A stretch of DNA of 64,000 nucleotides from an uncultured Pseudomonadota bacterium (GCA_963739205.1 CAVTZJ010000003.1:205902-269901); one strand, 5' to 3'. Positions 12,823-42,706 are shown, numbered from the stretch's first letter. Numbers and translations are program-made. Notes: a model not told the origin generated them from the sequence alone.

Positions 12823-13643
12823 ACGAACGCTCGCCCAAAGACCGGTTCGAGTTCGGGCGGAACTGGCAGGAGTACTCCACGCTCGTCGACGAGGCTCGCA
12901 TCGCCGAGGCGAAGCGTAGGCTCGCCTCGATGCTCGGAACGAATGACCTCGCCGGGCGCAGCTTCCTGGACGTCGGCTGCGGATCCGGCCTGCATTCGCT
13001 CGCGGCGCTCGGGATGGGTGCCGGACGCGTGGTTGCCATCGACCTCGATCCGCGATCGGTCGCCACGACCGCCGCCTTGCTCGAGCGCTTCGCGCCCGGC
13101 CACCGTGCAGTCGTCAAGGAGATGAGCGCCTTCGACCTCGAGGGTCAACCGTTCGGTCGATTCGACATCGTCTACTCTTGGGGCGTGCTGCACCACACCG
13201 GAGACATGGCGCGCGCCCTCAAAGCGGCTGCGGGCTGTACGAAGCCGGGCGGCCTGTTCGCCGTCGCGCTGTATGGCAAGACACGCTTCTGCGCCATTTG
13301 GAAGCGCATCAAGCGCTGGTACGTCAACGCGTCGCCTGACAAGCAGGCGTGGGCCGAAAGGACCTACGTTCGCCTGTTCGGCGCGTATTTGCTGCTGAGA
13401 GGCAAGCGACTGGCGACGCACATCAGGAACTACGACCGCAAACGCGGGATGGACTTCCACCATGACGTGCGCGACTGGATCGGTGGCTATCCCTATGAAT
13501 CGATCGCGCCCGACGAGCTGGCCGCGCTGCTCGAGCCGCTCGGCTTCGCAATCGTCTGGAAGAAGACGAAGAGACGCTCCGGCCTGTTCGGTTCCGGCAA
13601 CGACGAATACCTTCTGCGATGTGCGGGATCCTCGCCCTTGTAG
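12819..13643 (+). CDS. Class I SAM-dependent methyltransferase
   Basis: ATGA-coupled start. RFEFGRNW, SFLDVGCGSG, FDIVYSWGVLHHTG, DWIGGYPYE. Confidence 0.88.
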   Translation: MNERSPKDRFEFGRNWQEYSTLVDEARIAEAKRRLASMLGTNDLAGRSFLDVGCGSGLHSLAALGMGAGRVVAIDLDPRSVATTAALLERFAPGHRAVVKEMSAFDLEGQPFGRFDIVYSWGVLHHTGDMARALKAAAGCTKPGGLFAVALYGKTRFCAIWKRIKRWYVNASPDKQAWAERTYVRLFGAYLLLRGKRLATHIRNYDRKRGMDFHHDVRDWIGGYPYESIAPDELAALLEPLGFAIVWKKTKRRSGLFGSGNDEYLLRCAGSSPL

Positions 13644-15445: not shown

Positions 15446-15453
15446 CACGCCCG

Positions 15454-17666: not shown

Positions 17667-17679
17667 TCGGCCCCGGCCG

Positions 17680-26301: not shown

Positions 26302-26652
26302 GTGCTCACCGATGAAACGCGATATCGAATTCTCAAGCTCCTCGAGGCGGACCCCCGAGCGAGCCAGCGAAAGATCGCGGAGGACTTGGGCATCAGCCTT
26401 GGGCGAGTGAACTACTGCCTGCAGGCTTTGATCGAGAAGGGTCTCGTTAAGGCCAACAACTTCCGCAACAGCGCCAACAAACGCGCTTACCTGTACCTGC
26501 TGACGCCCCGGGGCATCGAGGAGAAGGCGATTGTCACCACCAGATTCCTGCGGAGGAAGCTCGAGGAATACGAAACGCTGAAGCGCGAGGTGGAGCAGTT
26601 GCAGCGCGAAGCGTCCGCAGTGAACCTACCCGACGAAGCGAAGAAGGGGTAG
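26302..26652 (+). CDS. EPS-associated MarR-family transcriptional regulator
   Basis: SQRKIAEDLGISLGRVNYCLQALIEKGLVK and NSANKRAYLYLLTPRGIEEK, the signature of the polysaccharide-locus MarR family. Confidence 0.93.
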   Translation: MLTDETRYRILKLLEADPRASQRKIAEDLGISLGRVNYCLQALIEKGLVKANNFRNSANKRAYLYLLTPRGIEEKAIVTTRFLRRKLEEYETLKREVEQLQREASAVNLPDEAKKG

Positions 26653-26657: not shown

Positions 26658-27670
26658 GTGCTGCTCAAGGACAAGAAGATTCTGGTCACTGGGGCCGACG
26701 GCTTCATCGGCTCGCACCTGGTTGAGCACCTGGCCGCACAGGGACACGAAGTGAGAGCCTTCGTGCTGTACAACTCGATCGGTTCGCGCGGCTGGCTGGA
26801 TTCCGCGCAGCTCCCGTCGAGCGTCGAATTCGTCGCGGGCGACATACGCGACGCGCACGAGTGTGCGCGCCGCCATGCAAGGCTGCCAGGTAGTGCTGCA
26901 CCTCGCGGCCCTGATTTCGATTCCGTATTCCTACGAGTCGCCCGAGAGCTATGTCGACACCAACGTGCGCGGCACGATCAACGTGCTGCAGGCGGCCCGC
27001 GACCTGCGAGGTCGCGAAAGGGTCGTGCACACCTCGACCAGCGAAGTCTATGGCACGGCGCGCTTCGTGCCGATCACCGAGGAGCATCCGCTGCAGGGGC
27101 AGTCGCCATACTCGGCCTCCAAGATCGGCGGCAGATCAGATGGCGCACTGCGTATCTTCAGCTCTCTTCGGCGTCCCGGTCGCCATCATGCGGCCTTTCA
27201 ACACCTACGGGCCGCGGCAGTCGGCGCGCGCGGTCATTCCGACGGTCATCTCGCAAATCGCCGCGGGCGCACGCTCAGCTGCGCCGCGGCGTCTGCATCC
27301 GACGCGCGACTTCAACTTCGTCGGCGACACGGTGCGCGCCTTCGTTGCCACTGCCCAGGCGGACGCCGCAATCGGCGAGGTCATCAACATCGGCAGCAAT
27401 TTCGAGATTTCGATCGGCGACGCCGCGCGGCTGATCGCGGAGGTGATGGGCGCGCAGGTGACCGTGGAGCTGGATGCCGGGCGGCTGCGCCCGCAGTCCA
27501 GCGAGGTGGAACGGCTGTGGGCGGACAACGCCAAAGCCAGCCGCCTGCTCGGCTGGGAGCCGGAGTTCGGCGGGCGCGAAGGGCTGCGGCGCGGCCTCGA
27601 GACGACCGTGGCGTGGTTCAGGGACGAGGGAAACCTCCGCCTGTACCGCCCGGCCGAATACAGCATCTGA
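26658..27670 (+). CDS. legB: LegB-like NDP-GlcNAc 4,6-dehydratase, several indels between about 26860 and 27300
   Basis: VTGADGFIGSHL, HLAALISIPYSY, HTSTSEVYGTA, QSPYSASK, RPFNTYGPRQSARAVIP, TRDFNFV, spread over three frames. Confidence 0.87.
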
Positions 27671-27675
27671 GCGCC

Positions 27676-28836
27676 ATGATCGACGCTGCCGCGGTAGTCC
27701 GCACCCTCGAAGACGTCCTGCAAGGCGCGGCGCGGCCGGTCGCGCTGCACGAGCCAGTGTTCGGCGGCACCGAGTGGCGCAACGTGAAGGAATGCCTGGA
27801 TACCGGCTGGGTCTCGTCCGTCGGCACCTACGTCGACAAGTTCGAGCGGGACCTGGGCGAGCACGTCGGTGGCTACGCGGTCGCGATGTCGAATGGCACG
27901 TCCGCGCTGCATGCCTGCCTCCTGCTTTCCGGCGTCGAGGCGAATGACGAGGTCCTCGTACCCGCGCTCACGTTCATCGCCACGGCCAATGCGGTGAGCT
28001 ACTGCGGCGCGGTGCCTCATCTCGTCGATAGCACCGAATCAACGCTCGGCATGGATCCGGCGCGGCTCTCCACCTACCTCGCGGGCATCGCCGAGGTGCG
28101 CGACGAGGAATGCCGCAACCGCAAGACGGGGCGCCGGATCAGGGCAGTCATGCCGATGCATACCTTCGGCCATCCTGTGGACCTGGATGCGCTCAGCGAA
28201 GTCGCTGACCGATTCGCGCTGGTGCTGGTCGAGGATGCCGCCGAGTCGCTGGGCACGCGCTACAAGGGCCGGCACACCGGCCCGCTGGGCCGGCTGGGAG
28301 CGCTGAGCTTCAACGGCAACAAGATCATCACGACGGGAGGCGGCGGCGCGCTCGTCACACGTGACGCAGGGCTCGCCGCGCGCGCCAAGCACCTGACCAC
28401 CACGGCGCGCATTCCGCACCGCTGGTCGTTCATCCACGACCAGGTCGGCTACAACTACCGCATGCCCAATATCAACGCGGCCCTGGGCTGCGCGCAGCTC
28501 GAAGCGCTGCCCGAGCTGCTGCGCAGGAAGCGGGCACTCGCCGCGCGGTACGCGGCGGCGTTCGCCGGGACAAAAGGAGCACGTATCTTCGCTGAGCCCG
28601 CATTCGCCAGCAGCAACTACTGGCTGAACGTGCTCGTGCTGGACGAGGAAACCGCGGGCAAGCGCGACGAGATCCTCGAAGCAACGAACGCCGCCGGATT
28701 CCATACGCGCCCGGTGTGGACGCCAATGCACAAGCTGCCCATCTACGCGGACTGCCCACGCATGGACCTGAGCACGGTGGAGAGCCTCGAGCGCAGGATC
28801 GTCTGCCTGCCGAGCGGGCCGAGGCTCGCAAGCTGA
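27676..28836 (+). CDS. legC: LegC-family PLP aminotransferase
   Basis: VALHEPVF, DTGWVSSVG, HTFGHP, EDAAESLG, SFNGNKIITTGGGG, GYNYRMPNINAALG, TRPVW. Confidence 0.93.
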   Translation: MIDAAAVVRTLEDVLQGAARPVALHEPVFGGTEWRNVKECLDTGWVSSVGTYVDKFERDLGEHVGGYAVAMSNGTSALHACLLLSGVEANDEVLVPALTFIATANAVSYCGAVPHLVDSTESTLGMDPARLSTYLAGIAEVRDEECRNRKTGRRIRAVMPMHTFGHPVDLDALSEVADRFALVLVEDAAESLGTRYKGRHTGPLGRLGALSFNGNKIITTGGGGALVTRDAGLAARAKHLTTTARIPHRWSFIHDQVGYNYRMPNINAALGCAQLEALPELLRRKRALAARYAAAFAGTKGARIFAEPAFASSNYWLNVLVLDEETAGKRDEILEATNAAGFHTRPVWTPMHKLPIYADCPRMDLSTVESLERRIVCLPSGPRLAS

Positions 28837-28837
28837 T

Positions 28838-29989
28838 ATGGCAAAGCGCGCCATTTGCGTCGTGACCGGCAGCCGGGCGGACTACGGCCTGCTTTTCTGG
28901 GTCATGAAGGCGATCCAGCAGGACCCCGCGCTGGCACTCCAAGTCGCTGTCACGGGCATGCATTTCGCGCCGGAATTCGGCATGACGCAGCGAGTGATCG
29001 AGGCGGACGGCTTTCCGATCAGCGCGCGCGTCGACTCGCTGCTGTCTGGCGACAGCCCCGCCGCCATCACCAAGTCGATCGGGCTCGGCGTCATCGGCTT
29101 CGCCGACGCCTTCGAGCGATTGCAACCCGAAATTGCCGTGCTGCTAGGCGACCGCTTCGAGATTCTTGCCGCCGCGCAGGCCGCGCTGATGGCGAAGATT
29201 CCGGTCGCGCACATCGCTGGCGGCGACATCACGGAAGGCGCTCTCGACGACGCCATTCGGCACGCCATCACCAAGATGGCGCACCTGCATTTCGTCACGA
29301 ATGCCGCTGCCGCGGCACGCGTGCGGCAACTTGGCGAAGACCCGCGCCGCGTTTTCGACGTCGGCAGCCCCGGCCTCGACACCTTGCGCCACACGAAGCT
29401 GCTGTCGCGCGGCGAGCTCGAAGCCGCGCTCGGCATCTCGCTGCGCCAGCGCAATCTCGTGGTCACGTTTCATCCCGCGACGCTCGCGCGCGGCAGCTCC
29501 GCGCCGCAGCTGTCCGAACTGCTCACCGCGCTGGATACGCTGGGCGATGAGTTCGGCATTGTCTTCACCAAGGCAAATGCCGATGCCGAGGGCAGGACAT
29601 TCAATGCCATGATCGAGGCGCACGTCGCGTCGCGGCCCAATTGCCGCCTGTTCGACTCCCTCGGCCAGCAGCTGTACCTGAGCCTCATGCGCCATGCGGA
29701 CGTCGTGGTGGGCAATTCGTCCAGCGGGCTGTACGAGGCGCCGACGCTGCACAAGCCCGCTGTCAACATCGGCGACCGGCAAAAGGGGCGGCTGCGCGCC
29801 GCGTCAGTCCTGGATTGCGCTCCCAGCGCAGGCGCAATCGAGCGCACCATCCGCGCGGCGCTGACGCTTGACTGCTCGCAGGTGACGAATCCCTACGGCG
29901 ACGGGCACGCCGCCGAACGCATCATCGCTACCCTGAAGTCCGTCGCCGACCCGCAGTCCCTGCTGCAGAAACGGTTTTCCGATGCGTAG
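28838..29989 (+). CDS. neuC: Hydrolysing UDP/GDP-N-acyl-hexosamine 2-epimerase (NeuC/LegG)
   Basis: VTGSRADYGLL, TGMHFAPEFG, LGDRFE, HAITKMAHLHF, GNSSSG, NIGDRQKGR. Confidence 0.95.
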   Translation: MAKRAICVVTGSRADYGLLFWVMKAIQQDPALALQVAVTGMHFAPEFGMTQRVIEADGFPISARVDSLLSGDSPAAITKSIGLGVIGFADAFERLQPEIAVLLGDRFEILAAAQAALMAKIPVAHIAGGDITEGALDDAIRHAITKMAHLHFVTNAAAAARVRQLGEDPRRVFDVGSPGLDTLRHTKLLSRGELEAALGISLRQRNLVVTFHPATLARGSSAPQLSELLTALDTLGDEFGIVFTKANADAEGRTFNAMIEAHVASRPNCRLFDSLGQQLYLSLMRHADVVVGNSSSGLYEAPTLHKPAVNIGDRQKGRLRAASVLDCAPSAGAIERTIRAALTLDCSQVTNPYGDGHAAERIIATLKSVADPQSLLQKRFSDA

Positions 29990-31076
29990 CCGCCGATCCG
30001 TCGGAGACGACGTGTACGTGATCGCCGAAGCCGGCGTCAACCACAACGGCTCGCTCGCGCTGGCACTACAACTGGTCGACGCTGCAGCCGATGCCGGCGC
30101 CGACGCGGTGAAGTTCCAGACCTTCCGCGCAGAGGATCTTGCGACCGCGCAGGCACCCAAGGCCGCTTACCAGGTGAAGACGACCGGGTCGCGCGAATCC
30201 CAGTTCCAGATGCTGAAGAAGCTGGAGCTCAGCCCCTCAGCGCACCGTACGCTGATCGCGCGATGCCAGCGTAGGGGCGTGGACTTCATCTCGTCACCGT
30301 TCGATGCCGCAAGCTTGCGGCTGCTGACCCACACGTTGCGGCTGCCGGTGCTCAAGATACCCTCCGGCGAGATCACGAACGGTCCGCTGCTCTTGCAGGC
30401 CGCTCGCAGCGGGCGGCGCATCATCCTGTCGACCGGCATGAGCGTGCTCGCCGAAATCGAGGCGGCGCTCGGCGTGCTCGCGTTCGGTCTGGTCGGCTCG
30501 AGGCAGGAACCCTCGCGCGCGCAATTCGCGCAGGCCTACCGGTCAGCCGCGGGCCAGCGCCGCCTGCGCGACAAGGTTGTGATCCTGCACTGCGTCACGG
30601 ACTACCCGGCGCGCTTCGAAGACGTGAACCTGCGCGCAATGGATACGCTGCGCACGGCATTCGGCCTGCCAGTGGGCCTCTCGGACCACACGCAAGGCAT
30701 TGCCATGCCGATCGCCGCCGCCGCGCGCGGCGCGCGCGTGATCGAGAAGCACCTCACCCTCGATCACGCCCTGCCCGGCCCGGACCACCGTGCTTCGCTC
30801 GAGCCGGGGGAATTCGCCGCGATGGTGGCGGGTGTGCGTCAGGTCGAAAGTGCGCTCGGCGACGGCCTCAAGCGCCCGACCGCCACCGAATTGCGCAATG
30901 CACGCACCGCGCGCAAGGCGCTCGTCGCGGCGCGCTCCATCGCGCGCGGGGAGCGCTACTCGTCACGCAATCTGACTGCAAAGCGTGCCGGCGGCGGCCG
31001 CTCGCCGCTCGACTACTGGGAACTCATCGGCAAGCCGGCGCAGCGCCGCCTGCGCAAGGACGAGCCCGTCGAATGA
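29982..31076 (+). CDS. neuB: Nonulosonate synthase (NeuB/LegI) with SAF domain
   Basis: IAEAGVNHNG, VKFQTF, KIPSGEITN, ILSTGM, LHCVTDYP, GLSDHT, IEKHLTLD, GPDHRASLEP. Confidence 0.95.
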   Translation: MRSRRSVGDDVYVIAEAGVNHNGSLALALQLVDAAADAGADAVKFQTFRAEDLATAQAPKAAYQVKTTGSRESQFQMLKKLELSPSAHRTLIARCQRRGVDFISSPFDAASLRLLTHTLRLPVLKIPSGEITNGPLLLQAARSGRRIILSTGMSVLAEIEAALGVLAFGLVGSRQEPSRAQFAQAYRSAAGQRRLRDKVVILHCVTDYPARFEDVNLRAMDTLRTAFGLPVGLSDHTQGIAMPIAAAARGARVIEKHLTLDHALPGPDHRASLEPGEFAAMVAGVRQVESALGDGLKRPTATELRNARTARKALVAARSIARGERYSSRNLTAKRAGGGRSPLDYWELIGKPAQRRLRKDEPVE

Positions 31077-31713
31077 GCACTATCCACGTGATCCTCATCG
31101 GCGCGGGCGGGCATGCGCGGGTACTGCTCGACGCCCGACGTCTTCGGGCGCGGCAATTCTCGGCCTCGTCGACAAAGATCCGGCTCTCGTCGGCCAGAAG
31201 GTTCTGGGATACGAAGTTCTGGGCGACGACGAAGTGGTGCGCAAGCACGCACCGGGCAGCGTAAGGCTGGTCAACGCCATTGGCTCCAATAAGACGATGG
31301 ACAAACGCTGGTCAGTCTATGAAGCCTGGCGGAAGGCCGGCTACACTTTTGCGAGCGTCCAGCATCCAAGCGCGATCGTGTCCCGGCACGCCACGGCGGC
31401 AGCGGGCGTTCAAGTCATGGCGGGCGCGGTGGTGCAGGCCTGCGCGAGCATCGGCGAGAACACGATCGTGAATACCGGCGCCACCGTGGACCACGATTGC
31501 GAGATCGGCGCGCACGTCCATCTGGCGCCCGGCGTCACGCTCTCGGGCAACGTCTGGGTCGGCGATGGCACGCATATCGGCACCGGGGCCGCCGTGATTC
31601 AGGGCAGGCGAATCGGCGCGCGCTGCACCGTCGCCGCCGGCGCGGTAGTGGTGAGCGACGTCGCGGATGGCACGACGGTGATGGGCGTACCGGCGGAGGA
31701 GGTGCGCAAGTGA
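31073..31713 (+). CDS. NeuD/PglD-type hexapeptide acetyltransferase, frameshift near 31136
   Basis: ILIGAGGHARV in one frame; VNAIGS, HPSAIVS, IVNTGATVDHDCEIG and hexapeptide repeats in the next. Confidence 0.88.
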
Positions 31714-32762
31714 AGAGTTGGCGACAGTTGCTGATTCCTCCAACGGCGTCAATCCGCGAGGCTATTTCGCGGATTGACGCTGGCAACGCCCAGATCGTTC
31801 TCGTTGCCGACGAGAATGGAACGCTAATGGGCACCATAACCGACGGCGATGTTCGGCGCGGAATTCTTAGAGGTTGCGCTCTCGATGACGCGTCGAGCCG
31901 CATTATGAATTCGCGTCCGCAAACAGCGCACGTCAATGAGTCACGCGAAGCAATCTTGCGAATTATGCGGGACAAGCAAATCCATCAGATCCCGCTGGTC
32001 GATTCCGACGGCAGAGTAGGCGGACTTGAAGTATTGGACGAACTGCTCAGACCGACGCTGAGACCAAATAGCGTGGTGCTTATGGCGGGAGGAATCGGTA
32101 GCCGGCTAAAGCCGCTAACGGATCAAACGCCGAAGCCGATGCTGCAAATTGGCAATAAACCGATACTCGAAACGATTATCGAGAACTTCGCGGAGTACGG
32201 CTTCAGAGAGTTCTACATAGCCGTGAATTACATGAGCGGGGTGGTGACCGACTATTTCGGGGACGGCTCGTCCTGGGGCATTCGCATCAAATACCTTAGG
32301 GAGGATCGGCAGCTCGGCACTGCAGGTGCGCTCAGCCTGCTGACACCGCCGCCCGAAAGCTCGGTCGTAGTCATGAATGGGGACATTCTCACAAAGGTGA
32401 ACTTCCACCATCTGCTGGAGTTTCACGAAGCGAACAACGCTGTCGCAACAATGTGCGTGCGACATCATGAATACCAGATTCCATATGGTGTCGTGTCCAT
32501 TGACGGCGACCGTATAGCAGGAATTCATGAAAAGCCGCGGCATTCTTGCTTAGTCAGTGCCGGCATCTACGTCCTCGAACCTGAGGCGCTCAGGTTCGTG
32601 GATGCCGGATCCAAGATGGACATGCCAACCCTATTCGAGAGACTTGTTCAATCTGGAAAGCGAACGGCTGCATTTCCGATACGCGAGTACTGGCTGGACA
32701 TCGGTCGACTTGAGGATTTTCAGCAGGCGGCGAGCGACTTTCAGCGAGAATTCAATGATTGA
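31710..32762 (+). CDS. CBS-domain nucleotidyltransferase (PtmE-like)
   Basis: GTITDGDVRRG (CBS), MAGGIGSRLKPLT..PKPML, LGTAGAL, VMNGDIL, YWLDIG. Confidence 0.93.
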   Translation: MKSWRQLLIPPTASIREAISRIDAGNAQIVLVADENGTLMGTITDGDVRRGILRGCALDDASSRIMNSRPQTAHVNESREAILRIMRDKQIHQIPLVDSDGRVGGLEVLDELLRPTLRPNSVVLMAGGIGSRLKPLTDQTPKPMLQIGNKPILETIIENFAEYGFREFYIAVNYMSGVVTDYFGDGSSWGIRIKYLREDRQLGTAGALSLLTPPPESSVVVMNGDILTKVNFHHLLEFHEANNAVATMCVRHHEYQIPYGVVSIDGDRIAGIHEKPRHSCLVSAGIYVLEPEALRFVDAGSKMDMPTLFERLVQSGKRTAAFPIREYWLDIGRLEDFQQAASDFQREFND

Positions 32763-33504
32763 TGGCAAGCGCGTAATTGCCGTGATCGCGGCCAGAGGCG
32801 GATCAAAAGGCCTTCCTCGCAAGAATGTAAGGATGGTCGGCGGGCGGCCATTGGTCGCTTGGCCAGTGCTCGCCGCCCGCGGATCAAGGATCGTAGACAG
32901 GGTGATTGTGTCCACCGACGACCCAGAAATTGCGGATGCAGCTCGTCAAGCTGGTGGCGAGTTGCCATTTATCCGCCCCGCCGAATTGTCGTCCGATACG
33001 GCTTCAAGCATGTCAGTGGTGCGGCACGCATTGGATGTGCTTGCAGCAGGTGGTGATGACTATGACTACGTAGTCTTGTTGGAACCCACGTCTCCGCTCA
33101 CTGAGCCAATCGACATCGAACGAGCGCTAACGATGCTCCATTCCTCACGAGCATCTGGGGACGCCGTAGTGGGGGTGGCTCGGGTACATGCCGCCCACCC
33201 TGAGTTCGATGTCCGGCTTGTTGAAGGTGGTCTTATTCGACCATATGCGGCTGGGAACTTCAGTTCATTGAAGCGGCGACAGGACATTGAGGAGCTGTAT
33301 TTCCTGGAGGGCAGTCTTTACTGCTCCGCAGTCGACGCCTTTTTCCGCCATGGAACCTTCTATCACGACCGAACCCTCGGCTACGTAGTCCCGCGGTGGA
33401 AGTCCTTTGAGGTAGACGAACTTCTAGATCTGATCTGTATTGAAGCAATCCTCTCTCGGCGAGAGGAACTGCGATCCGGCGAGAGCACTACCCAGACCTC
33501 GTAG
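32755..33504 (+). CDS. neuA: CMP-nonulosonate synthetase (NeuA/LegF/PtmB)
   Basis: IAARGGSKGLPRKN, VSTDDPEIA, RPAELSSD, LEPTSP, EGSLY. Confidence 0.93.
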   Translation: MIDGKRVIAVIAARGGSKGLPRKNVRMVGGRPLVAWPVLAARGSRIVDRVIVSTDDPEIADAARQAGGELPFIRPAELSSDTASSMSVVRHALDVLAAGGDDYDYVVLLEPTSPLTEPIDIERALTMLHSSRASGDAVVGVARVHAAHPEFDVRLVEGGLIRPYAAGNFSSLKRRQDIEELYFLEGSLYCSAVDAFFRHGTFYHDRTLGYVVPRWKSFEVDELLDLICIEAILSRREELRSGESTTQTS

Positions 33505-33544
33505 CTGATGCCCTCGGACTAAGGCCGAATGGCCGGGAGATGAG

Positions 33545-34735
33545 ATGAAGCGCTGTACAAAGTGTCTTGTGCCAGAGACCGTCGACACCATTTCTTTCGA
33601 CGAAAAGGGTGTCTGTAGCGTATGCCGCCAGGTCGAGATGAAACACGATCGAATCGACTGGATAGAGCGCAGAGGCCAACTCCACGCTCTCATTGACGAG
33701 TTTAGGGGCAAAGGGACGTATGACTGCATCTTGCCGTTTAGCGGCGGGAAGGACAGCACCTTCCAGCTTTGGTATGTCGTGACCCAGTTGGGTTTAAAGC
33801 CCTTGGTCGTGCGCTTCAATCACTGGGGATACCGGCCGTTAGTCGAAGAGAACAACACCAGGACCTTCAAGAAACTCGGCGTCGACGTTGTTGAATTCAC
33901 TCCCAACTGGCACGTGGTTCGCGAACTGATGCTTGAATCGCTTAGGCGCCGCGGCGATTTTTGTTGGCATTGCCATACGGGCATATACGCGGGTGTGATG
34001 CACATGGCGATTCGATTTCAGACTCCGTTGATTATTTGGGGCGAGTCTACGGCGGAGTATCACTCCTGGTACACGTTCGACGAGATGGAGGAAGTGGACG
34101 AGAAGCGCTTTAACCGGATGATGAATCTTGGCATGACGGCAGACGACATGTATGAGTTCTTGCAAGGCCGTGTGGCCAAGCGCGATCTTTGGATGTTTAC
34201 GTATCCGCCGCGCAAGGATTTGGCTCGCATCGGCTGTCGCTCAATCTGTCTCGGCAACTACATCAAATGGGATACAAAGAAGAACGTCGAAGTGATCCAG
34301 CGAGAACTCGAGTGGAAAGGACAGGCGACTGAAGGCGTACCACCAACGTATCCATACGAGAAGATCGAGTGCGCGTTTCAGGGCATGCGCGATTACGCAA
34401 AATTCGTGAAGCGCGGATACGGCCGAACAAACCACTTGGCGAGCATTGACATTAGGCACGACCGCCTGACCCGAGACGCCGGACTAGTGCTTGAGGCGGA
34501 GTACGACGGGAAGCGGCCGGCCTCCATGGAGTGGTTCCTAAAGATACTGGAGATCACCGAGGCTGAGTTCTATCAGATTCTCGAGAAGCACCAAGTGCAT
34601 CCGTGGAAATTCGATCCCAAAGTGGTCGTCACCGGGAAGCCTGTTCCAGACATGGCAAGCTGGGATAGTACGGAGGTAGATCGCTCTGTGGGCCCTCCCA
34701 AGGACAACGAGGGGAAGACCACGAAGTACATATGA
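33545..34735 (+). CDS. N-acetyl sugar amidotransferase, WbuX/PseA/PtmG/WbpG family
   Basis: CTKC..P, CSVC, YDCILPFSGGKDS (PP-loop), IIWGE, KRGYGR, DIRHDRLTRD. Confidence 0.92.
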   Translation: MKRCTKCLVPETVDTISFDEKGVCSVCRQVEMKHDRIDWIERRGQLHALIDEFRGKGTYDCILPFSGGKDSTFQLWYVVTQLGLKPLVVRFNHWGYRPLVEENNTRTFKKLGVDVVEFTPNWHVVRELMLESLRRRGDFCWHCHTGIYAGVMHMAIRFQTPLIIWGESTAEYHSWYTFDEMEEVDEKRFNRMMNLGMTADDMYEFLQGRVAKRDLWMFTYPPRKDLARIGCRSICLGNYIKWDTKKNVEVIQRELEWKGQATEGVPPTYPYEKIECAFQGMRDYAKFVKRGYGRTNHLASIDIRHDRLTRDAGLVLEAEYDGKRPASMEWFLKILEITEAEFYQILEKHQVHPWKFDPKVVVTGKPVPDMASWDSTEVDRSVGPPKDNEGKTTKYI

Positions 34736-35346
34736 TCGCGATTGTCGACTACGGAATGGGAAACATCCGCTCTCTCCATAACGCCCTGCAATTCCTAGGG
34801 TCCGATGTCGAGGTCACATCCAACCCAAGGGACCTACGGCGCGCAGCAAGAATCATTCTTCCTGGTGTGGGTGCATTCGGCGACGCAGTTGACGCGATCC
34901 GGGCGCGCGGACTCGACGAGAGTCTTGATGCTGAAGTCCGGCAACGAGGCAAACCCATGTTGGGCATTTGCCTGGGTATGCAGCTCTTAGCAATGTCGAG
35001 CACCGAACACGGGCTACACGTTGGCCTCGGCTGGTTCAATTCGCGAGTCGAACGCTTCGAGCTTCCCCCCACCTACAAGGTGCCGCATATCGGCTGGAAT
35101 GATATTGAACACCGCATCGACCCTTTGTTTACTGGACTCAGCGGGTCCGAGAAGAACTTCTACTTTGTGCACAGCTACTACATGCATTGCGACAACCCAG
35201 ATGACGTGATCGCGACGTGCGAGTACGGCGTGCGCTTCGCTGCCGCAATTAGATCGGAGAATATCGTCGCCACCCAATTCCACCCGGAGAAGAGCCAGGA
35301 CAACGGCATTCGCCTTCTACGGAACTTCATCGCCTGGAACCCCTAG
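34732..35346 (+). CDS. HisH-like glutaminase subunit (WbuY-type glycan-locus paralogue)
   Basis: DYGMGNI, ILPGVGAF, LGICLGMQ, YFVHSY, QFHPEKSQ. Confidence 0.92.
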   Translation: MIAIVDYGMGNIRSLHNALQFLGSDVEVTSNPRDLRRAARIILPGVGAFGDAVDAIRARGLDESLDAEVRQRGKPMLGICLGMQLLAMSSTEHGLHVGLGWFNSRVERFELPPTYKVPHIGWNDIEHRIDPLFTGLSGSEKNFYFVHSYYMHCDNPDDVIATCEYGVRFAAAIRSENIVATQFHPEKSQDNGIRLLRNFIAWNP

Positions 35347-35347
35347 T

Positions 35348-36124
35348 GTGCTGAAGAAGCGAATTATTCCGAAATTTCTTATAAAGGGCGGACGCCTTGT
35401 AAAGGGCGTGCGATTCCACGAAAACTTCCGTGAGGCGGGCAATCCCGTCTCCACCGCGAAAGTTTACGACGCATATGGTGTCGATGAACTGATCTTTCTC
35501 GATATCGAAGCCAGCGTCGAGAACAGACCAGTTGTCCACGACATCATCGAACGCGTGTCTGAGGAAGTCTTCATGCCCTTCACGGTCGGTGGTGGCGTAC
35601 GAACGCTGGAAGACATCAATCGACTGTTGCGTGCGGGTGCCGACAAGGTCTGCATCAACTCGGCGGCTGTCGAGCGGCCGAATTTGATTCGCGAGGGTGC
35701 AAACCGCTTTGGCGACCAATGCATTACGGTTGCGATCGACTACCGCGAAATCTCCCCCGGCGTGCGCCAGATTTTTTCTCACTGTGGGACCCGCGCCGCA
35801 CCGGTAGACCCACTCGAATGGGCGTTGCGCATGCAGGATGCTCACTGTGGCGAGATCATCATGTGCTCGATTGATCGCGATGGCACATTGTCAGGGTACG
35901 ACCTCGACCTGATAGCTTCCGCAGCCGAACGCTTGGAAGTACCCCTGATTGCCTCTAGTGGCGCCGGTTCCCTGCTCGACTGCCAAGATGCGCTCGAAGC
36001 CGGCGCTTCGGCGGTGACTATAAGCAGCATGTTTCTCTTCACGGACCATAGCCCCATCAAGGTCCGGTCCTACCTAGCGTCAAACGGTGTCAACGTACGC
36101 GCTCAACGCGGCAGCCACAGCTGA
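35348..36124 (+). CDS. HisF-like TIM-barrel subunit (WbuZ/HisF2-type glycan-locus paralogue)
   Basis: KRIIPKFL, LVKG, DELIFLDI, PFTVGGGV, GADKV, SIDRDGT, IASSGAG. Confidence 0.92.
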   Translation: MLKKRIIPKFLIKGGRLVKGVRFHENFREAGNPVSTAKVYDAYGVDELIFLDIEASVENRPVVHDIIERVSEEVFMPFTVGGGVRTLEDINRLLRAGADKVCINSAAVERPNLIREGANRFGDQCITVAIDYREISPGVRQIFSHCGTRAAPVDPLEWALRMQDAHCGEIIMCSIDRDGTLSGYDLDLIASAAERLEVPLIASSGAGSLLDCQDALEAGASAVTISSMFLFTDHSPIKVRSYLASNGVNVRAQRGSHS

Positions 36125-36798
36125 TGAGACGCGTCCGCACAAGTCTTACCGACGCTCAGCTGGCGAACTACGTTGTCCGTCAACTAAACGGCATATTTCC
36201 CGACGAGCGGCCCATCGCGCTAGATGCACTGCACACCGTCCTGCCCACCACGTTGGACCGCATCGAACATTGCTTTACCAAGATCAGCAATAAGTACTTC
36301 TTCGACGGGTCGCAGGCCGTTTTCAGTCACTTGCACGGCGACCAGTATGCGATGTTTCTGTACCTGCTGGCGAACACTGCACATCGTGCAGGGTTGTCGG
36401 ATGAGGTAGCGACGAAGGTTTACTTGCTCAACAAGGCCCTGCACGGAATAGATGCGTTCTACGAGGTGGAACTTCCCTCCATTTTCCTGTTCGTGCACCC
36501 AATTGCTACGGTATTGGGTCGGGGACGGTATTCCGACCATCTTGTTGTCTATCAACGCTGCGGAGTAGGAAGCAACCACGAAATCTATCCAGAATTGGGC
36601 GAGTTCTTGACGATGCATCCGGGAAGCGCCGTGCTCGGAAATTGTCGTATCGGGCGGAACTGCACGATTGCGACGGAGTCGCTCGTCCTGGATCGGGACC
36701 TGCGTGATGACACTGTCTACATCGGCAATCCTAAGAACTTCACGACCCACGAATTGCGAGCTCGGTTTGCTGCGTGGCGCGCGACTCCAAATGCATAG
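36124..36798 (+). CDS. Serine-acetyltransferase-like left-handed beta-helix acyltransferase
   Basis: Helical N-terminal region (HGDQYAMFLYLLAN), then FVHPIATVLG and GSAVLGNCRIGRNCTI hexapeptide repeats. Confidence 0.72.
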   Translation: MRRVRTSLTDAQLANYVVRQLNGIFPDERPIALDALHTVLPTTLDRIEHCFTKISNKYFFDGSQAVFSHLHGDQYAMFLYLLANTAHRAGLSDEVATKVYLLNKALHGIDAFYEVELPSIFLFVHPIATVLGRGRYSDHLVVYQRCGVGSNHEIYPELGEFLTMHPGSAVLGNCRIGRNCTIATESLVLDRDLRDDTVYIGNPKNFTTHELRARFAAWRATPNA

Positions 36799-36800
36799 CC

Positions 36801-38099
36801 ATGACGAAATCTTTTGACGCCCGACTTCAAGCAGTCATACCTGGTGGGGCCCACACATACTCGCGAGGCGCAGACCAGTTCCCGTCCAATGCCCCGCAGA
36901 TCCTGGCGCGCGGCAAAGGCGCCTACGTCTACGACGACCAGGGCCGGCGCTATCTCGATTACGGCATGGCGCTGCGCGCGGTCAACATCGGCTATGCCGA
37001 GGAGGAGATCGACGAGGCCGCGATCCGCGAAATCCGCAACGGCAACAACCTGACCCGGCCGTCGCTGATCGAGTTGCAGGCCGCAGAGCTGTTCACCGGC
37101 CTGATCGATTCGGCCGACATGGTGAAGTTCACCAAGAACGGCTCCACGTCGGTGTCCGCGGCGGTGAAGCTGGCGCGCGCATTCACCGGCCGGGATCTGG
37201 TGGCGCGCTGTGCCGAGCATCCGTTCTTCTCCTACGACGACTGGTTCATCGGCTCGACCCCGCTGACCCGGGGAATACCGCGCGCGGTGATCGAGCAAAC
37301 GCTGCAGTTCCGCTTCAACGACGCCGCATCGCTGCGTGCGCTGTTCGACCGGCACCCGGGCCAGATCGCCTGTGCAGTGCTCGAGGCGGCGACGAATGCG
37401 CACCCGGATCAGGGCTTCCTCCAGGAGGTGCAGGCGCTTTGCCGGCAGCATGGAGCGGTGCTGATCCTCGACGAGATGATCACGGGATTCCGCTGGCACC
37501 TGAAAGGCGCCCAGCACTACTACGGGTTGCGTCCGGACCTGTGCACCTTCGGCAAGGCCATGGCGAATGGCTTCTCGGTGTCCTGCGTCGCCGGGCGCCG
37601 GGACATCATGGAGCTCGGCGCCATCGAGCCCGCGGGCCGCGAGCGCATGTTCCTGCTGTCGACCACGCACGGGGCGGAAATGGCCGGCATGGGCGCGTTC
37701 GTCGCCACGGTCAAGTTCCTCCAGCGCGAGCCCGTCGTCGAGCATCTCTGGCGCTACGGGCAGCAGCTGATCGACCTGATCAACGGCGCCGCGCGCGAGT
37801 TCGGCGTCGAAGCGAGCCTCAGCGCAGCCGGCGTGCCCTGCTCGCCGCATTACGCGACCCTGGACCGCGCCGGCAACCCGTCGCTGGAGCTGCGCACGCT
37901 GTTCGGGCAGGAGATGGTGCGCCACGGCGTGCTGATGCCATGGATCGCGCTCAGCTACCGGCATGGCCCGGAGGAGCTCGAGCTCACGGGGCGCGCCCTG
38001 CGCGCGACCCTCGAGGTATACAGAAAGGCGCTCGATCAAGGGCCCCAGGCGTTCCTGCTGGGGCCGGCGATCAAGCCCGTGTTCCGGAAATTCAACTGA
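36801..38099 (+). CDS. Class III PLP aminotransferase, glutamate-1-semialdehyde aminomutase-like
   Basis: IPGGAHTYSRG, GKGAYVYD, KFTKNGS, DEMITGFR, TFGKAMANG (PLP Lys), STTHG. Glycan-locus context argues against hemL. Confidence 0.9.
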   Translation: MTKSFDARLQAVIPGGAHTYSRGADQFPSNAPQILARGKGAYVYDDQGRRYLDYGMALRAVNIGYAEEEIDEAAIREIRNGNNLTRPSLIELQAAELFTGLIDSADMVKFTKNGSTSVSAAVKLARAFTGRDLVARCAEHPFFSYDDWFIGSTPLTRGIPRAVIEQTLQFRFNDAASLRALFDRHPGQIACAVLEAATNAHPDQGFLQEVQALCRQHGAVLILDEMITGFRWHLKGAQHYYGLRPDLCTFGKAMANGFSVSCVAGRRDIMELGAIEPAGRERMFLLSTTHGAEMAGMGAFVATVKFLQREPVVEHLWRYGQQLIDLINGAAREFGVEASLSAAGVPCSPHYATLDRAGNPSLELRTLFGQEMVRHGVLMPWIALSYRHGPEELELTGRALRATLEVYRKALDQGPQAFLLGPAIKPVFRKFN

Positions 38100-38869
38100 T
38101 GCTGCGCGATAAAGTCGTTGTGATCACCGGCGGTGCCGGTCTGCTCGGGCGCAGTTTCTGCCGCGCCGTGCTGCAAAACGGCGCGAGCTGCCTGGTCGCG
38201 GACCTGGACGAAGAGCGTGGCACGCGAGCCGCCGCAGACCTCGGCGGCGAGTTCGGCGCGCAGCGCGCCGCCTATTGCCAGGTCGACATCAACGACCCCT
38301 CTTCAGTGGACGCATTGCTCGACACCGCCCGACAGCGCTTCGGCCGCATCGACGCGCTGGTCAACAACGCGTATCCGCGCAACGGCAACTACGGGCGCAA
38401 GTTCGAGGAGGTCACACGCGCGGATTTCTGCGACAACGTATCCCTGCACCTCGGCGGCTACTTTCTCGTGTCACAGAAGTTCATCGCGCGCTTCCGCGCC
38501 CAGGGGCACGGCAACATCGTGAACATGGCCTCGGTGTACGGCTTTCTCGCGCCGCGCTTCGAAATCTATCGCGGCACGACCATGACCATGCCGGTGGAGT
38601 ACGCCGTCATAAAGGCTGGGGTGCTGCAGCTTACGAAGTACTTGGCCCGCTATCTTGCGGGCGAAAACATTCGAGTTAATGCGATCAGTCCAGGTGGGGT
38701 CGCAGATGCGCAACCCGACTCCTTTCTAGCGGGCTATCGCTCGTTCTGCCTAAACAAGGGGATGCTAAGCGAGTGCGACATTTGTGGGGCACTCGTGTTT
38801 CTTCTCTCCGACCAATCACGCTACATGAACGGACAGAACATCGTGGTCGATGATGGGTTCAGCCTCTAG
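38099..38869 (+). CDS. SDR oxidoreductase, PtmA (flagellin modification protein A)-like
   Basis: VITGGAGLLG, LVNNAYPRN, NMASVYG, PVEYAVIKAG (YxxxK), NAISPGG, GQNIVVDDGFSL. Confidence 0.9.
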   Translation: MLRDKVVVITGGAGLLGRSFCRAVLQNGASCLVADLDEERGTRAAADLGGEFGAQRAAYCQVDINDPSSVDALLDTARQRFGRIDALVNNAYPRNGNYGRKFEEVTRADFCDNVSLHLGGYFLVSQKFIARFRAQGHGNIVNMASVYGFLAPRFEIYRGTTMTMPVEYAVIKAGVLQLTKYLARYLAGENIRVNAISPGGVADAQPDSFLAGYRSFCLNKGMLSECDICGALVFLLSDQSRYMNGQNIVVDDGFSL

Positions 38870-38896: not shown

Positions 38897-40189
38897 ATGA
38901 GCTTCCACGTGAAGCGCATCCTGATAATCATGAACAAAGCCAGTCGTGAGGAGCCGATCATGGCTGCGATTCGCGACAGGGTGTTGGCTTTCGATTCCAA
39001 AATTGACGTTCGAATTGTCCGCTTTGAGGACGTGTTTGGCGACCTTGTGCTTGATTTCCGACCGAATGTAATTCTCACGTTTCCGCTCACCAGCATCGGT
39101 ACTGCTGACTTGCTCTATGTCTTCAAGTGGTACTGCGGCGCGGCGGTGGTGTCTTTGCGCGCCGAAGGTGTGGTCAATCCAGACTCACCAAGCAATATTG
39201 CCGACCATGTCGGCTACGACGAGTATGGACCTGAGTTAGTCGATTGGGAGGTGTTCTGGGGTCCAGGAATGGCCAACATCGTGGGTGCGATCCTTGTTGA
39301 GCGGAGAAAGCTTTCGTCCTCGCAAAGATTGCGATACTTCGGATATCCAAGGCTCGAGCGCTACTTCATGCAGAACGAAGAGAAATGTCTGAATGACGTG
39401 ACGCACTTAGTGAGCGAGGCGATACGCGCTTCCGGGAGGGAGCAATCCGTGCTGGTGGCGACGGGCTTTCACTTTGCCAATTACACGCGCGACGAGCTTT
39501 ATGCGGCGAAGGATCTTGACGCAGCCAGTCGGGAAGCAGAGCTGCTCGCGATGATTGAAGCCTCCAAAGTGTTTCGCCAGACCTGGATTGACGGCTTACG
39601 CCGCGCGGCGAACGAGCATCCAGAAGTCCAGTTCATACTGAAGAAGCACCCGAGCGAAAAGACGAACGACTATGCCAGTCTGCAAGGGCTCCCGAATCTC
39701 CTGTATGTGTCCCAGGACGTGGATATTGCAGATCTCATGGAGAGGGCTTCGTTGTTCCTTCACTACGGATCTACCACGCTCGCGGACGCCTACCTTGCGG
39801 GTGTGCCGTCGGTCTACCTGTACTCGGACGACGAGCGGTGCAGGCGGGTGTACAACGATATGGGTTGGCCTTCGACCGAGTCGCGCCGGGTAGTCGACAT
39901 CCCTTTGGTAATCAATGATTTTCTGTCGGGCGGAATTCAGTTTCGGAAGACGCCAGAGGTGTCAGCGCTTCTTGAGTATCACTTCAATATCCAAGAGGGA
40001 AGACCCTACCAACCATCGCGAGAGATTGCAGAACTGCTGCTCATGCCGGGCAAGCCGCAGAAGCCTTCTCCAAGTGACCGATACTTCAGGCGTGCCATAG
40101 CAAGGCACCTGTATCTGCGCGCACGTAGGGCGATTGGCCGGCTGATCAGGCGACTGCTCCGCCGTGCACGAGGTAAATCAGCGCTATGA
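38897..40189 (+). CDS. Hypothetical surface-carbohydrate protein with GT-B-like features; candidate nonulosonate transferase
   Basis: 430 aa, low-GC codon use. RAEG, FWGP, GYPRLE, LKKHP, HYGSTT, AYLAGVP motifs; follows the CMP-nonulosonate pathway genes. Confidence 0.6.
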   Translation: MSFHVKRILIIMNKASREEPIMAAIRDRVLAFDSKIDVRIVRFEDVFGDLVLDFRPNVILTFPLTSIGTADLLYVFKWYCGAAVVSLRAEGVVNPDSPSNIADHVGYDEYGPELVDWEVFWGPGMANIVGAILVERRKLSSSQRLRYFGYPRLERYFMQNEEKCLNDVTHLVSEAIRASGREQSVLVATGFHFANYTRDELYAAKDLDAASREAELLAMIEASKVFRQTWIDGLRRAANEHPEVQFILKKHPSEKTNDYASLQGLPNLLYVSQDVDIADLMERASLFLHYGSTTLADAYLAGVPSVYLYSDDERCRRVYNDMGWPSTESRRVVDIPLVINDFLSGGIQFRKTPEVSALLEYHFNIQEGRPYQPSREIAELLLMPGKPQKPSPSDRYFRRAIARHLYLRARRAIGRLIRRLLRRARGKSAL

Positions 40190-42035
40190 ATTCAAGCTTC
40201 GGACACTCATCGAACACTTCACCAATAGGGCGCGACCTTCCTTGAGATTTCTGATTGCGTATGTAGAACAACACCTGATCATCCGACTAGCGGCAGCAGC
40301 GATTTGCCTAGCTGCACTGGACATGGCGGGTGTGGCGGTGGTGTTCCCTTACCTGTCGGTGCTGACCGTTGAGTCCCCGGATGTTGGCGAGGGTTTGTTG
40401 GCGCGGCTCTATGTATGGACGGGTGCCGCGTCTCGTCAGCAGTTCCTCGTCGCAGTATCTGCGGCCCTGGCGGGATTCTTCCTTCTCAAGTTCGCGATCG
40501 CCTACCTCGCGAACCGCGTCAAATACCGGACCAACGCGCGCATCACCACCGGCCTGTCTGACGACCTGTTCAGGCGCCTGCTGGGCGCCGATTACTCGTT
40601 TCTCGCCAACCACAGCGTGTCCGAGATGACCGGCGTGATCAACGCCGAGACCATCCACGCAACGCTGTGCCTGGATGCGTGGGTCTCGATCGCGACCGAG
40701 GCCCTGTTTCTTCTGTTGATCCTCGCCACCATCACCGCAATCGACGTGCGGCTCGCCGCGCTGCTGGTGGCGGGCTTGGCGGTGCTTACCGCGATCCTCT
40801 ACGTCGGCGTGATCAGGCCGACAACGCGCCTGGGCGCCCAGCAGACGCAGATCCACCTGCGCCAGTACCGCTTCCTCTACAGCGTCGTCAACGCCCTGAA
40901 GGACATCAAGATCCTGGGCCTCGAGCGCGCATCCGAGGCGGAGCACCGCGACCTGAACACGCGCTACGCCGGTGCGATCGCCTCCTTCTACGTCTACCAG
41001 ACGCTGCCGCGCGCCGTTCTCGAGCTCCTGGTGATGGTGGGGCTGGTAGGCGCATCGGTGCTGGTGGTGCTGACCGACCAGGACCTCAAGGCGGCCGTTC
41101 CCGTGATCGGCCTGCTCGCCGTGGCCGCGTGGCGCGTGGTGCCCTCCTACAGCCGGATCATCGGCGCCTACGGCACCTACAAGTACTACAAGCCCTCGCT
41201 CGGCGTGGTGCAGCGCCTGTACGAGGACTTGGGCGGCGCGCAGGTGCGGCAGCGCGCCGCGCCGCTTGCCTTCGAGCATGCGCTGGAAATCCACGACCTG
41301 CATTTCTCCCACGGCGACAAGGCGGTGCTCGCCGGCGTGTCGCTCACGATCGCCAAGGGCCGTGCCATCGGCATCGTCGGCCTTTCCGGCTCCGGCAAGA
41401 CCACGTTCCTCGACGTGCTGGCCGGCTTGCGCCGCCCGCAACGCGGCCGCTTCCTCCTCGATGGCAAGGACTTCGATCCGTTCGAAGCCGATACCTTGCG
41501 CCGGCTGTTCGGCTACGTGCCGCAGAACGTCACGCTCATCGACGACAGCATCGCCTTCAACATCTCCTTCGAGCGCCAGCCGGACCGGGAACGCCTGGAG
41601 CGGGCGATGCGCGTTGCGCGCATCGACGAGTTCATCGCCTCGTTGCCCGAGCGATTCGAGACCCAGGTCGGGGAGAACGGCGTGCGCGTGTCCGGCGGCC
41701 AGAAGCAGCGCATCGGCATTGCGCGCGCCCTGTACCGCGACCCGCAGTTGCTCATCTTCGACGAAGCCACCAGTTCCCTGGACAACGTAACGGAACGCGA
41801 GCTGAGCGCGGAGATCGCGGGCCTGTCGGGAAGCAAGACGCTGATCATCGTCGCTCACCGGCTGAGCACAGTGGAGCGCTGCGACCAGATTCACGTCTTC
41901 GATCAGGGCCGCGTCGTGGGCAGCGGCACACATGCAACGCTGCTGCAATCCTGCCCCGAATACCGCGCCCTGTACCTGGCGCAGGAGCCGGGCACGGCGG
42001 ACGCGGACCAGGCACGCATGGCGAGGGCCTCGTGA
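40186..42035 (+). CDS. ABC transporter (fused TMD+NBD), PglK/WlaB/HepA-like glycan flippase; start probably hit by a 1-nt indel
   Basis: Multiple TM helices, GLSGSGKT, VPQN, SGGQKQRIGIARA, IFDEATSSLD, AHRL. The ATGA-coupled ATG at 40186 is one frame off the body. Confidence 0.9.
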
Positions 42036-42706
42036 TCCGGCGCGTTCTGCATCGCCTGCGGCGTGATTGGCACGCCGCGCGCGAAGCTGCCAACGCACGC
42101 AGGCGAAGCGCGAGGCGGCGCGCGCTCGAGCAGCGCCTCGCGGACAAGGGCATCCGCAAGCTGAATCTCGCCTGCGGCAACCAGAAAGTGCCCGGCTTCT
42201 TCGGCATCGACCTGGTGGACGGCGCGGACCTGCGCCTGGACCTGGCGCACATGGACCTGCCATTCCCCGACGCGAGCCTCGAGGCGGTGGTGTGCATGTC
42301 GGCGATCAATTACTTCACGCGCGCGCGCGCGCAGCAGCTGGTGCGCGAGACGCACCGCGTGCTGCGCGCCGGCGGTGTGTGCCGGATGGGCGTGCAGGAC
42401 ATGAAGTCGCTCGCCGAGCGCTACGTGCGCGGCGACCGGGAGCTCTTCTTTCAGAAACTTGCCGACGGCCGCGACCGCTTCGAGGGCCCGACCCTCGGCG
42501 ACAAGTTCGCGGCATGGTTCTACGGCTATGCCGTCGGCGCACACCGTTGCGAGTACTTCTACGATTTCGAGTCGCTCGCACATCTGTTCCGCGAAGCGGG
42601 CTTCAGCGTCATCGAGCGCAAGGCATTCCGCGAAAGCCGCATCGCGGAGGTCGAGCTGCTCGACAACCGCGCCGACCAGATGTTCTTCCTCGAGGCAATC
42701 AAGTGA
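42032..42706 (+). CDS. Class I SAM-dependent methyltransferase
   Basis: GTGA-coupled start. KLNLACG, LPFPDASLE, THRVLRAGG. Confidence 0.82.
   Translation: MIRRVLHRLRRDWHAAREAANARRRSARRRALEQRLADKGIRKLNLACGNQKVPGFFGIDLVDGADLRLDLAHMDLPFPDASLEAVVCMSAINYFTRARAQQLVRETHRVLRAGGVCRMGVQDMKSLAERYVRGDRELFFQKLADGRDRFEGPTLGDKFAAWFYGYAVGAHRCEYFYDFESLAHLFREAGFSVIERKAFRESRIAEVELLDNRADQMFFLEAIK

Follow-up and report, generated by a model that had tools for sequence, protein, structure and literature searches.

Nonulosonic acids cap bacterial lipopolysaccharides (LPS), capsules and flagella, and shape recognition by phages and immune systems. The closest described system to the one examined here is ElaABC of Acinetobacter baumannii KL49, which epimerises C8 of the cytidine monophosphate (CMP)-activated sugar CMP-Leg5,7Ac2, with ElaC acting as the C8 reductase of CMP-legionaminate (PMC13656337). 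We analysed a 64,000-nucleotide stretch from an uncultured Pseudomonadota bacterium (GCA_963739205.1 CAVTZJ010000003.1:205902-269901; hereafter the window, with positions counted from its first letter). By its gene content, the region at 26658-38869 is a CMP-legionaminic acid cluster with two tailoring units, lying inside an LPS/exopolysaccharide (EPS) locus. Like KL49, the window combines a CMP-synthetase with an ElaC-type short-chain dehydrogenase/reductase (SDR) bearing the same contact residues, and related loci add an ElaA-type oxidase in the same order. Unlike KL49, which has no aminotransferase, the window lacks ElaA and adds a class III aminotransferase and a CysE-fold acyltransferase. 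The aminotransferase and SDR form a widespread accessory module that is not peculiar to this genome, and it is in this module, and the general question it raises, that the interest lies rather than in the genome itself.

Several other pathways offer partial parallels. In Shewanella, Kdo8N is made by KdnB oxidation and KdnA transamination at C8 of the sugar Kdo; the logic proposed for the cluster is alike (oxidise a C8 hydroxyl, then transaminate), but the resemblance is one of logic only; the enzyme families differ, the sugar has eight carbons and the alcohol is primary. The WbpB/WbpE/WbpD and GnnA/GnnB routes to 3-acetamido sugars likewise deploy an oxidise, aminate and N-acetylate trio on a nucleotide sugar, with a left-handed beta-helix (LbH) acetyltransferase; these routes use DegT-family aminotransferases, uridine diphosphate (UDP)-sugars and PglD/WlbB-type LbH enzymes, whereas in the cluster the aminotransferase is of class III and the acyltransferase has the fold of CysE. 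For 6'-amination of aminoglycosides, GenQ/GenB1 and NeoQ/NeoB rely on a glutamate-1-semialdehyde (GSA)-aminomutase-like class III aminotransferase acting on an oxidised sugar carbon, as proposed here, although its substrates are pseudo-oligosaccharides, the acceptor is an aldehyde and the sequence similarity to the cluster enzyme is distant.

The aminotransferase and its partner genes

Genes were identified by scanning hidden Markov model profiles against family cut-offs (Pfam, TIGR and NF/PRK models). The GSA-aminomutase-like aminotransferase (36801..38099, + strand) scores 671.8 bits on NF004856 (PRK06209; cut-off 486), a family name that is an annotation only, and the pyridoxal phosphate lysine and a DExxTGFR motif are readable in its translation (LILDEMITGFRW and TFGKAMANG). 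On the hemL model TIGR00713 it reaches 203 bits against a cut-off of 527, and the HemL motif GVNSPVRAF is replaced; a genuine HemL, scoring 613 bits on the same model, is encoded elsewhere in the genome. An earlier note on this stretch had named action as HemL among the outcomes that would speak against its reading. On the low score, the separate genuine enzyme and the replaced motif we reject that identity, and the gene is a dedicated paralogue. The PDB contains no member of the family; enzymes of aminoglycoside 6'-amination (7lld, 9au3) are among the closest solved relatives. Public sources label the family glutamate-1-semialdehyde 2,1-aminomutase, although its members are sited in nonulosonate clusters and a separate HemL is present. 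This naming is likely a systematic misannotation, one that would be put right if the module were to install a third nitrogen.

Relatives of the aminotransferase were confirmed in at least 584 genome stretches (among the 599 matched stretches listed, in a scan of one genome per species), in many phyla and in both legionaminic and pseudaminic acid clusters. Homologues 70-87% identical occur in many lineages, and identity across phyla is 50-87%. Of 400 genomes sampled from the phylum, 22 carry an aminotransferase-like gene. Among the 24 that have a strict LegC, only 2 carry it, which argues for a tailoring or accessory step rather than a core step. The accessory module occurs in roughly 1-5% of sampled genomes of the phylum, and in many other phyla. 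Candidate culturable carriers are Rubrivivax rivuli KYPY4, Massilia cavernae K1S02-61 and Rhizobacter sp. Root1221, whose gene order is that of the window, as well as Vibrio tapetis with the aminotransferase, amidase and SDR set and Bdellovibrio sp. HCB-110 with the ElaA type.

To describe its company we counted partner genes in 80 fetched loci of many phyla, chosen by the aminotransferase. A CMP-synthetase gene lies near it in 57 loci and an SDR in 59, usually as the next gene. A Gfo/Idh/MocA oxidoreductase is found in 34, mostly directly upstream, and a carbon-nitrogen hydrolase in 19, mostly starting 3 bp after the aminotransferase and lying between it and the SDR. CysE-like acyltransferases (22 loci) and WbuX orthologues at least 40% identical (15 loci) make up the other partners counted; no NeuA-aminotransferase or aminotransferase-SDR fusion was detected among the 80. 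On co-occurrence with leg genes, to which the earlier note had looked, the aminotransferase-SDR pair stands beside a CMP-synthetase in many loci; strict-LegC genomes seldom carry the aminotransferase.

Oxidoreductase and acyltransferase are almost mutually exclusive, with 33 loci having the oxidoreductase only, 21 the acyltransferase only and one both. Because the partner types are interspersed on the aminotransferase tree, the enzyme probably does the same job in every context. The oxidoreductase upstream of the aminotransferase in related loci corresponds to ElaA, so that many of these loci resemble an ElaB-ElaA-ElaC cassette whose oxidase and reductase genes are separated by the aminotransferase.

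Among profile models, the hydrolase found in related loci comes nearest to the PRK10438 amidohydrolase, which we take to be the Escherichia coli YafV family, and to deaminated-glutathione amidase (e.g. L004:11290-12075 and L019:11314-12117). In pairs of glutamine transaminase and omega-amidase, the keto-amide left by transamination is removed and amination becomes irreversible. The hydrolase is probably an omega-amidase that renders a glutamine-dependent transamination irreversible in this way, and its place directly 3' of the aminotransferase fits a real, glutamine-driven amination. With a YafV/Nit-type amidase by the aminotransferase, these 19 loci are comparable to MtnE/MtnU of methionine salvage and to E. 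coli YafV. Unlike those systems, the window's genome has no such amidase (no YafV-like gene was found in it), and the amino acceptor is presumed to be a sugar.

The SDR and a proposed route through C8

The SDR gene (38099..38869, + strand) encodes a protein scoring 349 bits on PRK09186 (cut-off 255) and 264 bits on the PtmA equivalog model NF050062 (cut-off 350). Both the PRK09186 score and the ElaC substrate-contact residues place it in the ElaC/PtmA family; its earlier description as PtmA-like holds at the level of the family but not of PtmA itself. Crystal structures reported in 2026 identified the ElaC residues for catalysis and binding of CMP-8-keto-Leg5,7Ac2 as S145, Y147, I156, Y157, M164, P165, Y168, K172, Q205, F209, Y213, Y91 and Y97 (PMC13656337). 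Compared by these published residue numbers, not by alignment to the ElaC sequence, the cluster SDR has 11 of the contact residues at identical numbers, with Y92 and Y98 standing for Y91 and Y97. Across 52 aminotransferase-linked SDRs the contact positions are invariant or nearly so, variation being seen at 92, 98, 156 and 164. Because the substrate-contact residues of ElaC are present, the prediction that the SDR acts at C8 of a CMP-nonulosonate is well founded.

The genome, at 3.9 Mb, contains no detectable homologue of the ElaA-type Gfo/Idh/MocA oxidase (best tblastn E 0.41), and the window therefore does not hold a complete ElaABC cassette. For want of such an oxidase, we propose that the SDR runs oxidatively, converting the C8 hydroxyl of CMP-legionaminate to an 8-keto group. 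The aminotransferase would turn this 8-keto intermediate into the 8-amino-8-deoxy derivative, and acylation by the CysE-fold acyltransferase would follow, either on that amine or on an adjacent hydroxyl. WbuX and dedicated HisH/HisF partners would convert one acetamido group to acetamidino, and the product would be handed to a BFO_1060-like transferase and exported. We regard C8 oxidation and transamination, possibly with acylation, as plausible and adopt it tentatively, at somewhat short of an even chance. Gene identities, synteny, distribution and the conserved SDR pocket are observed, and from them we infer which way the SDR reacts, what accepts the amino group, which atom is acylated and what structure results. 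Less certain are how the SDR runs where ElaA is missing, what part it plays where ElaA is present, and the choice between N- and O-acetyltransferase.

An earlier role for the pair was also considered, in which the aminotransferase and SDR would supply an amino-sugar precursor to the guanosine diphosphate-N-acetylglucosamine (GDP-GlcNAc) branch, in the manner of Campylobacter PtmA/PtmF. Work by Schoenhofen in 2009 is said to have assigned PtmA/PtmF to GDP-GlcNAc supply, and the literature as summarised in PMC4481668 places both in the GDP-GlcNAc segment. PtmE adjoins the aminotransferase-SDR module in 53 of the 80 loci, and a dependence on glutamine would suit the amidase. However, an aminotransferase orthologue, 54% identical, lies within a true PseB-PseC-PseG-PseI cluster (L059), a UDP-based pseudaminic acid (Pse) locus with no detected PtmE homologue; its presence there indicates that the substrate is a feature common to Pse and legionaminic acid (Leg) rather than a supply of GDP-GlcNAc. 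The scarcity of the aminotransferase among strict-LegC genomes and an SDR pocket matching that of a CMP-nonulosonate binder point the same way. Mainly on the pseudaminic acid locus, we reject GDP-GlcNAc supply as highly improbable.

The same three enzymes (SDR, aminotransferase and acyltransferase) could instead build or remodel an N-acyl side chain, such as the N-acetyl-alanyl group of Leg5Ac7AcAla; a hydroxyacyl or ketoacyl substituent would be oxidised, transaminated and then N-acetylated. According to PMC7371886, the route by which Vibrio vulnificus CMCP6 makes Leg5Ac7AcAla is termed non-canonical, and a similar Aliivibrio wodanis cluster has a 'second aminotransferase'; two Vibrio loci in our own set (L019 and L020) carry the aminotransferase, amidase and SDR together. 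Yet the presence of the aminotransferase in the CMCP6 cluster could not be confirmed, the window's cluster encodes no ligase or acyltransferase able to install a lactoyl or pyruvoyl precursor, and the SDR pocket residues match those with which ElaC holds two N-acetyl groups and C8. We consider side-chain remodelling quite improbable.

The acyltransferase and the amidino unit

The acyltransferase (36124..36798, + strand) belongs to an uncharacterised family of CysE-fold LbH proteins, with weak hexapeptide and EpsC/CysE matches. An AlphaFold model of the protein has a predicted local distance difference test (pLDDT) score of 94, and its top 50 Foldseek matches in the PDB are all serine acetyltransferases, at template modelling (TM) scores of 0.57-0.70 and 13-19% identity. 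By sequence the protein is not CysE (28.9 bits on TIGR01172 against 210.65), so that the likeness is one of common fold only; the PDB holds no close relative. His125, in a VHP motif, is invariant. Since the fold is that of the serine O-acetyltransferases, O-acetylation is an equally good reading of its activity.

The amidino genes precede it. WbuX (33545..34735) scores 371 bits on TIGR03573 (cut-off 203), the HisH-like glutaminase subunit (34732..35346) 228 bits on TIGR01855, and the HisF/WbuZ-like subunit (35348..36124) 275 bits on the WbuZ model (cut-off 299.7), 231 on AglZ/HisF2 and 253 on hisF, all just below the cut-offs. As in the WbuX/WbuY/WbuZ, PtmG and PseA systems, a WbuX above the family cut-off is accompanied by dedicated HisH/HisF paralogues, and these stand apart from the histidine operon; housekeeping hisH and hisF are located elsewhere in the genome (hisH at C3:763838-764464). 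Conversion of acetamido to acetamidino groups is established for the WbuX family and, by analogy, WbuX/HisH/HisF would be expected to form an acetamidino group in this cluster. The window's WbuX clade occurs with the CysE-fold acyltransferase and the aminotransferase in 14 of 15 sampled loci, an association for which the O145 and Campylobacter systems offer no described counterpart. Searching the same 400 genomes for WbuX returned one close orthologue, on a fragmented contig.

The acyltransferase itself thus accompanies 14 of the 15 WbuX orthologues in the 80 loci. In L005, L013 and the distant L091 the aminotransferase and acyltransferase also stand side by side, and no amidino unit was found close to them. 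Such nesting would suit a linear sequence in which an amine becomes an acetamide and then an acetamidine, the sampling being conditional on the aminotransferase. Seven distant acyltransferase homologues, 28-38% identical, were found in the 400 genomes of the phylum in other polysaccharide contexts, of which L091 alone is informative. The L091 locus (4077-18634) is a pseudaminic acid cluster with two SpsF-like cytidylyltransferases; a distant class III aminotransferase (30% identical) is followed directly by the CysE-fold acyltransferase homologue (32% identical) and then by PseG, and further genes of the locus encode a Gfo/Idh/MocA protein, another aminotransferase (a second one, of DegT type) and a GNAT.

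Base composition and gene identities both point to a mosaic origin. G+C is 54-57% from PtmE through the acyltransferase (31710-36798) and in the transferase gene, the acyltransferase being as low as WbuX, HisH and HisF, against 66.8% in the aminotransferase, 61.5% in the SDR and about 67% from LegC to NeuD. The loci closest in WbuX (77-82%), HisF (74-80%) and acyltransferase (62-68%) have the same gene order as the window; the three metagenome loci fetched by WbuX are closely related and do not count as independent cases. In these loci the aminotransferase is just 55-58%, and the SDR 34-35%, identical to the window's, while an oxidoreductase-type locus has an aminotransferase 79% identical to the window's. 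The discordant identities indicate that the aminotransferase and SDR are one swappable unit and NeuA, WbuX, HisH, HisF and acyltransferase another. Read together with the base composition, they show that the window's aminotransferase-SDR pair derives from a different lineage and was swapped in by recombination where the acyltransferase and aminotransferase genes meet.

These observations bear on whether the product is an ordinary sugar, namely the acetamidino sugar Leg5Am7Ac or the 8-epimer of it, either perhaps bearing an O-acetyl group. Epimerisation at C8 would then fall to the SDR, acting by itself or together with a host enzyme, the CysE-fold protein would O-acetylate C8 or C4, and the aminotransferase would be auxiliary, adding no nitrogen to the sugar. 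Legionella legionaminate is 8-O-acetylated. The acyltransferase fold matches serine O-acetyltransferases only, and its company and G+C are those of WbuX, HisH and HisF. ElaC-type SDRs are documented in C8 epimerisation (PMC13656337), and O-acetylated Leg5Am7Ac is among the known structures (PMC3694923). Such a product would nevertheless leave without function an aminotransferase that is highly conserved between phyla and rarely seen outside nonulosonate clusters, would call for a two-enzyme epimerisation although no ElaA-type oxidase is present here, and sits badly with the omega-amidase coupling of related loci, which points to real amination. We judge the ordinary sugar unlikely, though far from negligible.

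Amination at C8, the reading we prefer, has its own difficulties. Oxidation of a secondary alcohol by an SDR is thermodynamically uphill, and the genome has no amidase that could pull it. In loci that have an ElaA-like oxidase as well as the aminotransferase and SDR, a pure amination route leaves the SDR with no obvious role. The acyltransferase has, according to its model, an O-acetyltransferase fold and appears to be co-inherited mostly with WbuX/HisH/HisF and not with the aminotransferase-SDR pair, and the LegB and NeuD frames are broken in the assembly. A literature search found no 8-amino or triamino nonulosonate, nor a class III aminotransferase in nonulosonate loci, and ElaC is described solely as a reductase (PMC13656337).

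Against this background the earlier note, which had an SDR oxidising a hydroxyl such as C8, an aminotransferase aminating it and an LbH protein acylating the amine, all as a single trio, survives in pieces. The site is supported through the ElaC contact residues but the direction is not, ElaC being known as a reductase. Amination gains from a dedicated, non-HemL paralogue and from the omega-amidase-like gene after it in related loci, while the third nitrogen stays a proposal; acylation of the amine gains from the loci where the acyltransferase adjoins the aminotransferase and no amidino unit is near, but is countered by the serine O-acetyltransferase fold. The trio as one unit is not upheld, the widespread unit being the aminotransferase-SDR pair.

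It is possible, if on the doubtful side, that an ElaC-type SDR and a PRK06209 aminotransferase, partnered by either an ElaA-type oxidase or a CysE-fold acyltransferase, make up a pathway, found widely, that leads to the 8-amino-8-deoxy (5,7,8-triamino) forms of legionaminic and pseudaminic acids. The unacylated 8-amino product, with a computed composition of C13H23N3O7 and a mass of 333.1536 Da, is isobaric with Leg5Am7Ac, so that mass-only surveys could have filed the 8-amino form as an acetamidino sugar. If this is true, the window's product, being further acetylated and amidinated, would have a mass of 374.18 or 375.16 Da; the values computed are 374.180 for a form with one amidino group and 375.164 for the tri-N-acetyl form. 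Were a third nitrogen installed, sialic-acid-like sugars would gain a new class of backbone, and mass-spectrometric surveys would have to be read differently.

The core cluster, its reading frames and its surroundings

The thirteen genes of 26658-38869 follow one another closely on the + strand, their junctions ranging from -8 to +40 nt. All the genes that the earlier note listed are present at its coordinates, with the short or overlapping junctions it gave, except that LegB is spread over three frames and NeuD over two. The first gene encodes a LegB-type NAD-dependent 4,6-dehydratase (26658..27670; frame interrupted at ~26859-26862 and 27129-27131), and is followed by the DegT-family aminotransferase LegC (27676..28836; TIGR04181 514.8 bits, cut-off 420), a NeuC/LegG hydrolysing 2-epimerase (28838..29989; TIGR03568 451 bits) and a NeuB/LegI nonulosonate synthase (29982..31076; TIGR03569 456.6 bits, cut-off 399.7) that is NeuB-type rather than PseI-type (251 bits on the PseI model). 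A NeuD/LegH-type N-acetyltransferase (31073..31713; TIGR03570 206.5 bits, from model position 20 on), a PtmE-like protein with CBS and sugar-1-phosphate nucleotidyltransferase domains (31710..32762; Pfam CBS and NTP_transferase) and a CMP-nonulosonate synthetase of NeuA/LegF/ElaB type (32755..33504; Pfam CTP_transf_3, with 146 bits on the PseF model, under its cut-off) complete the legionaminate pathway, in which LegB is not intact: its 336 residues are all encoded, but across three frames.

Searched by tblastn with intact homologues, LegB is recovered in three pieces that cover residues 1-69, 71-158 and 159-336, and a frame comparison places the first 21 codons of NeuD (MSTIHVILIGAGGHARVLLDA) in another frame than the remainder (31073-31140). 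Given that the frame changes twice in LegB and once in NeuD, the cluster could be decaying, the frameshifts being real and the organism making no legionaminate. Several observations oppose this. A WbpM-like gene outside the cluster is frame-shifted as well, at about 19905-19925, every LegB residue is still encoded and twelve other cluster genes are intact. Related contigs are short of single bases at 26858 and at 27128-27165: the base at 26858 is absent in contigs from three unrelated metagenomes that are 93-96% identical, and from one of the three seven single bases are missing in the span 27008 to 27165. These contigs come from soil and wetland metagenomes, not from reads of the source organism. 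The extra bases cluster in a 160-bp patch, like a poorly polished consensus, and the indel density in the stretch seems to be about one per 5 kb. Because related contigs lack the extra LegB bases and a gene outside the cluster is shifted too, assembly indel errors are the likeliest cause of the frame changes, and decay of the pathway is improbable.

The cluster is flanked by genes for glycosyltransferases, WecB, WecC and GDP-fucose. Directly upstream lies a MarR-family EPS-associated regulator (MarR_EPS; 26302..26652, + strand; TIGR04176 160 bits, cut-off 88). Downstream, at 38897..40189 (+ strand), is a candidate nonulosonate transferase of 430 aa, with no Pfam match, 55% G+C as in the WbuX block, and sub-threshold scores of 94 bits on the BFO_1060 family glycosyltransferase model and 88 bits on TIGR04396. 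BFO_1060 is, we assume, the Tannerella forsythia transferase for a legionaminic acid derivative, which makes this gene a candidate transferase for the cluster product; no homologue of it was detected in the closest WbuX-type loci (L096-L098). It overlaps a fused PglK/MsbA-like ATP-binding cassette (ABC) exporter gene (40164..42035, + strand; ABC_membrane and ABC_tran, with 279 bits on the PglK model, under its cut-off). Between this exporter and a GT1 glycosyltransferase, 42036-43923 shows no clean open frame and may be a further gene with a broken frame; its Pfam matches, to repeats like those of pectate-lyase, GH127 and squalene-cyclase, are weak and sub-threshold. In one close relative of the cluster (L097:2757-4277), a formyltransferase and a PIG-L deacetylase are encoded between NeuC and LegB, an arrangement that resembles the deacetylase/formyltransferase reported for formylated nonulosonates in Kuenenia (bioRxiv 10.64898/2026.04.20.719630).

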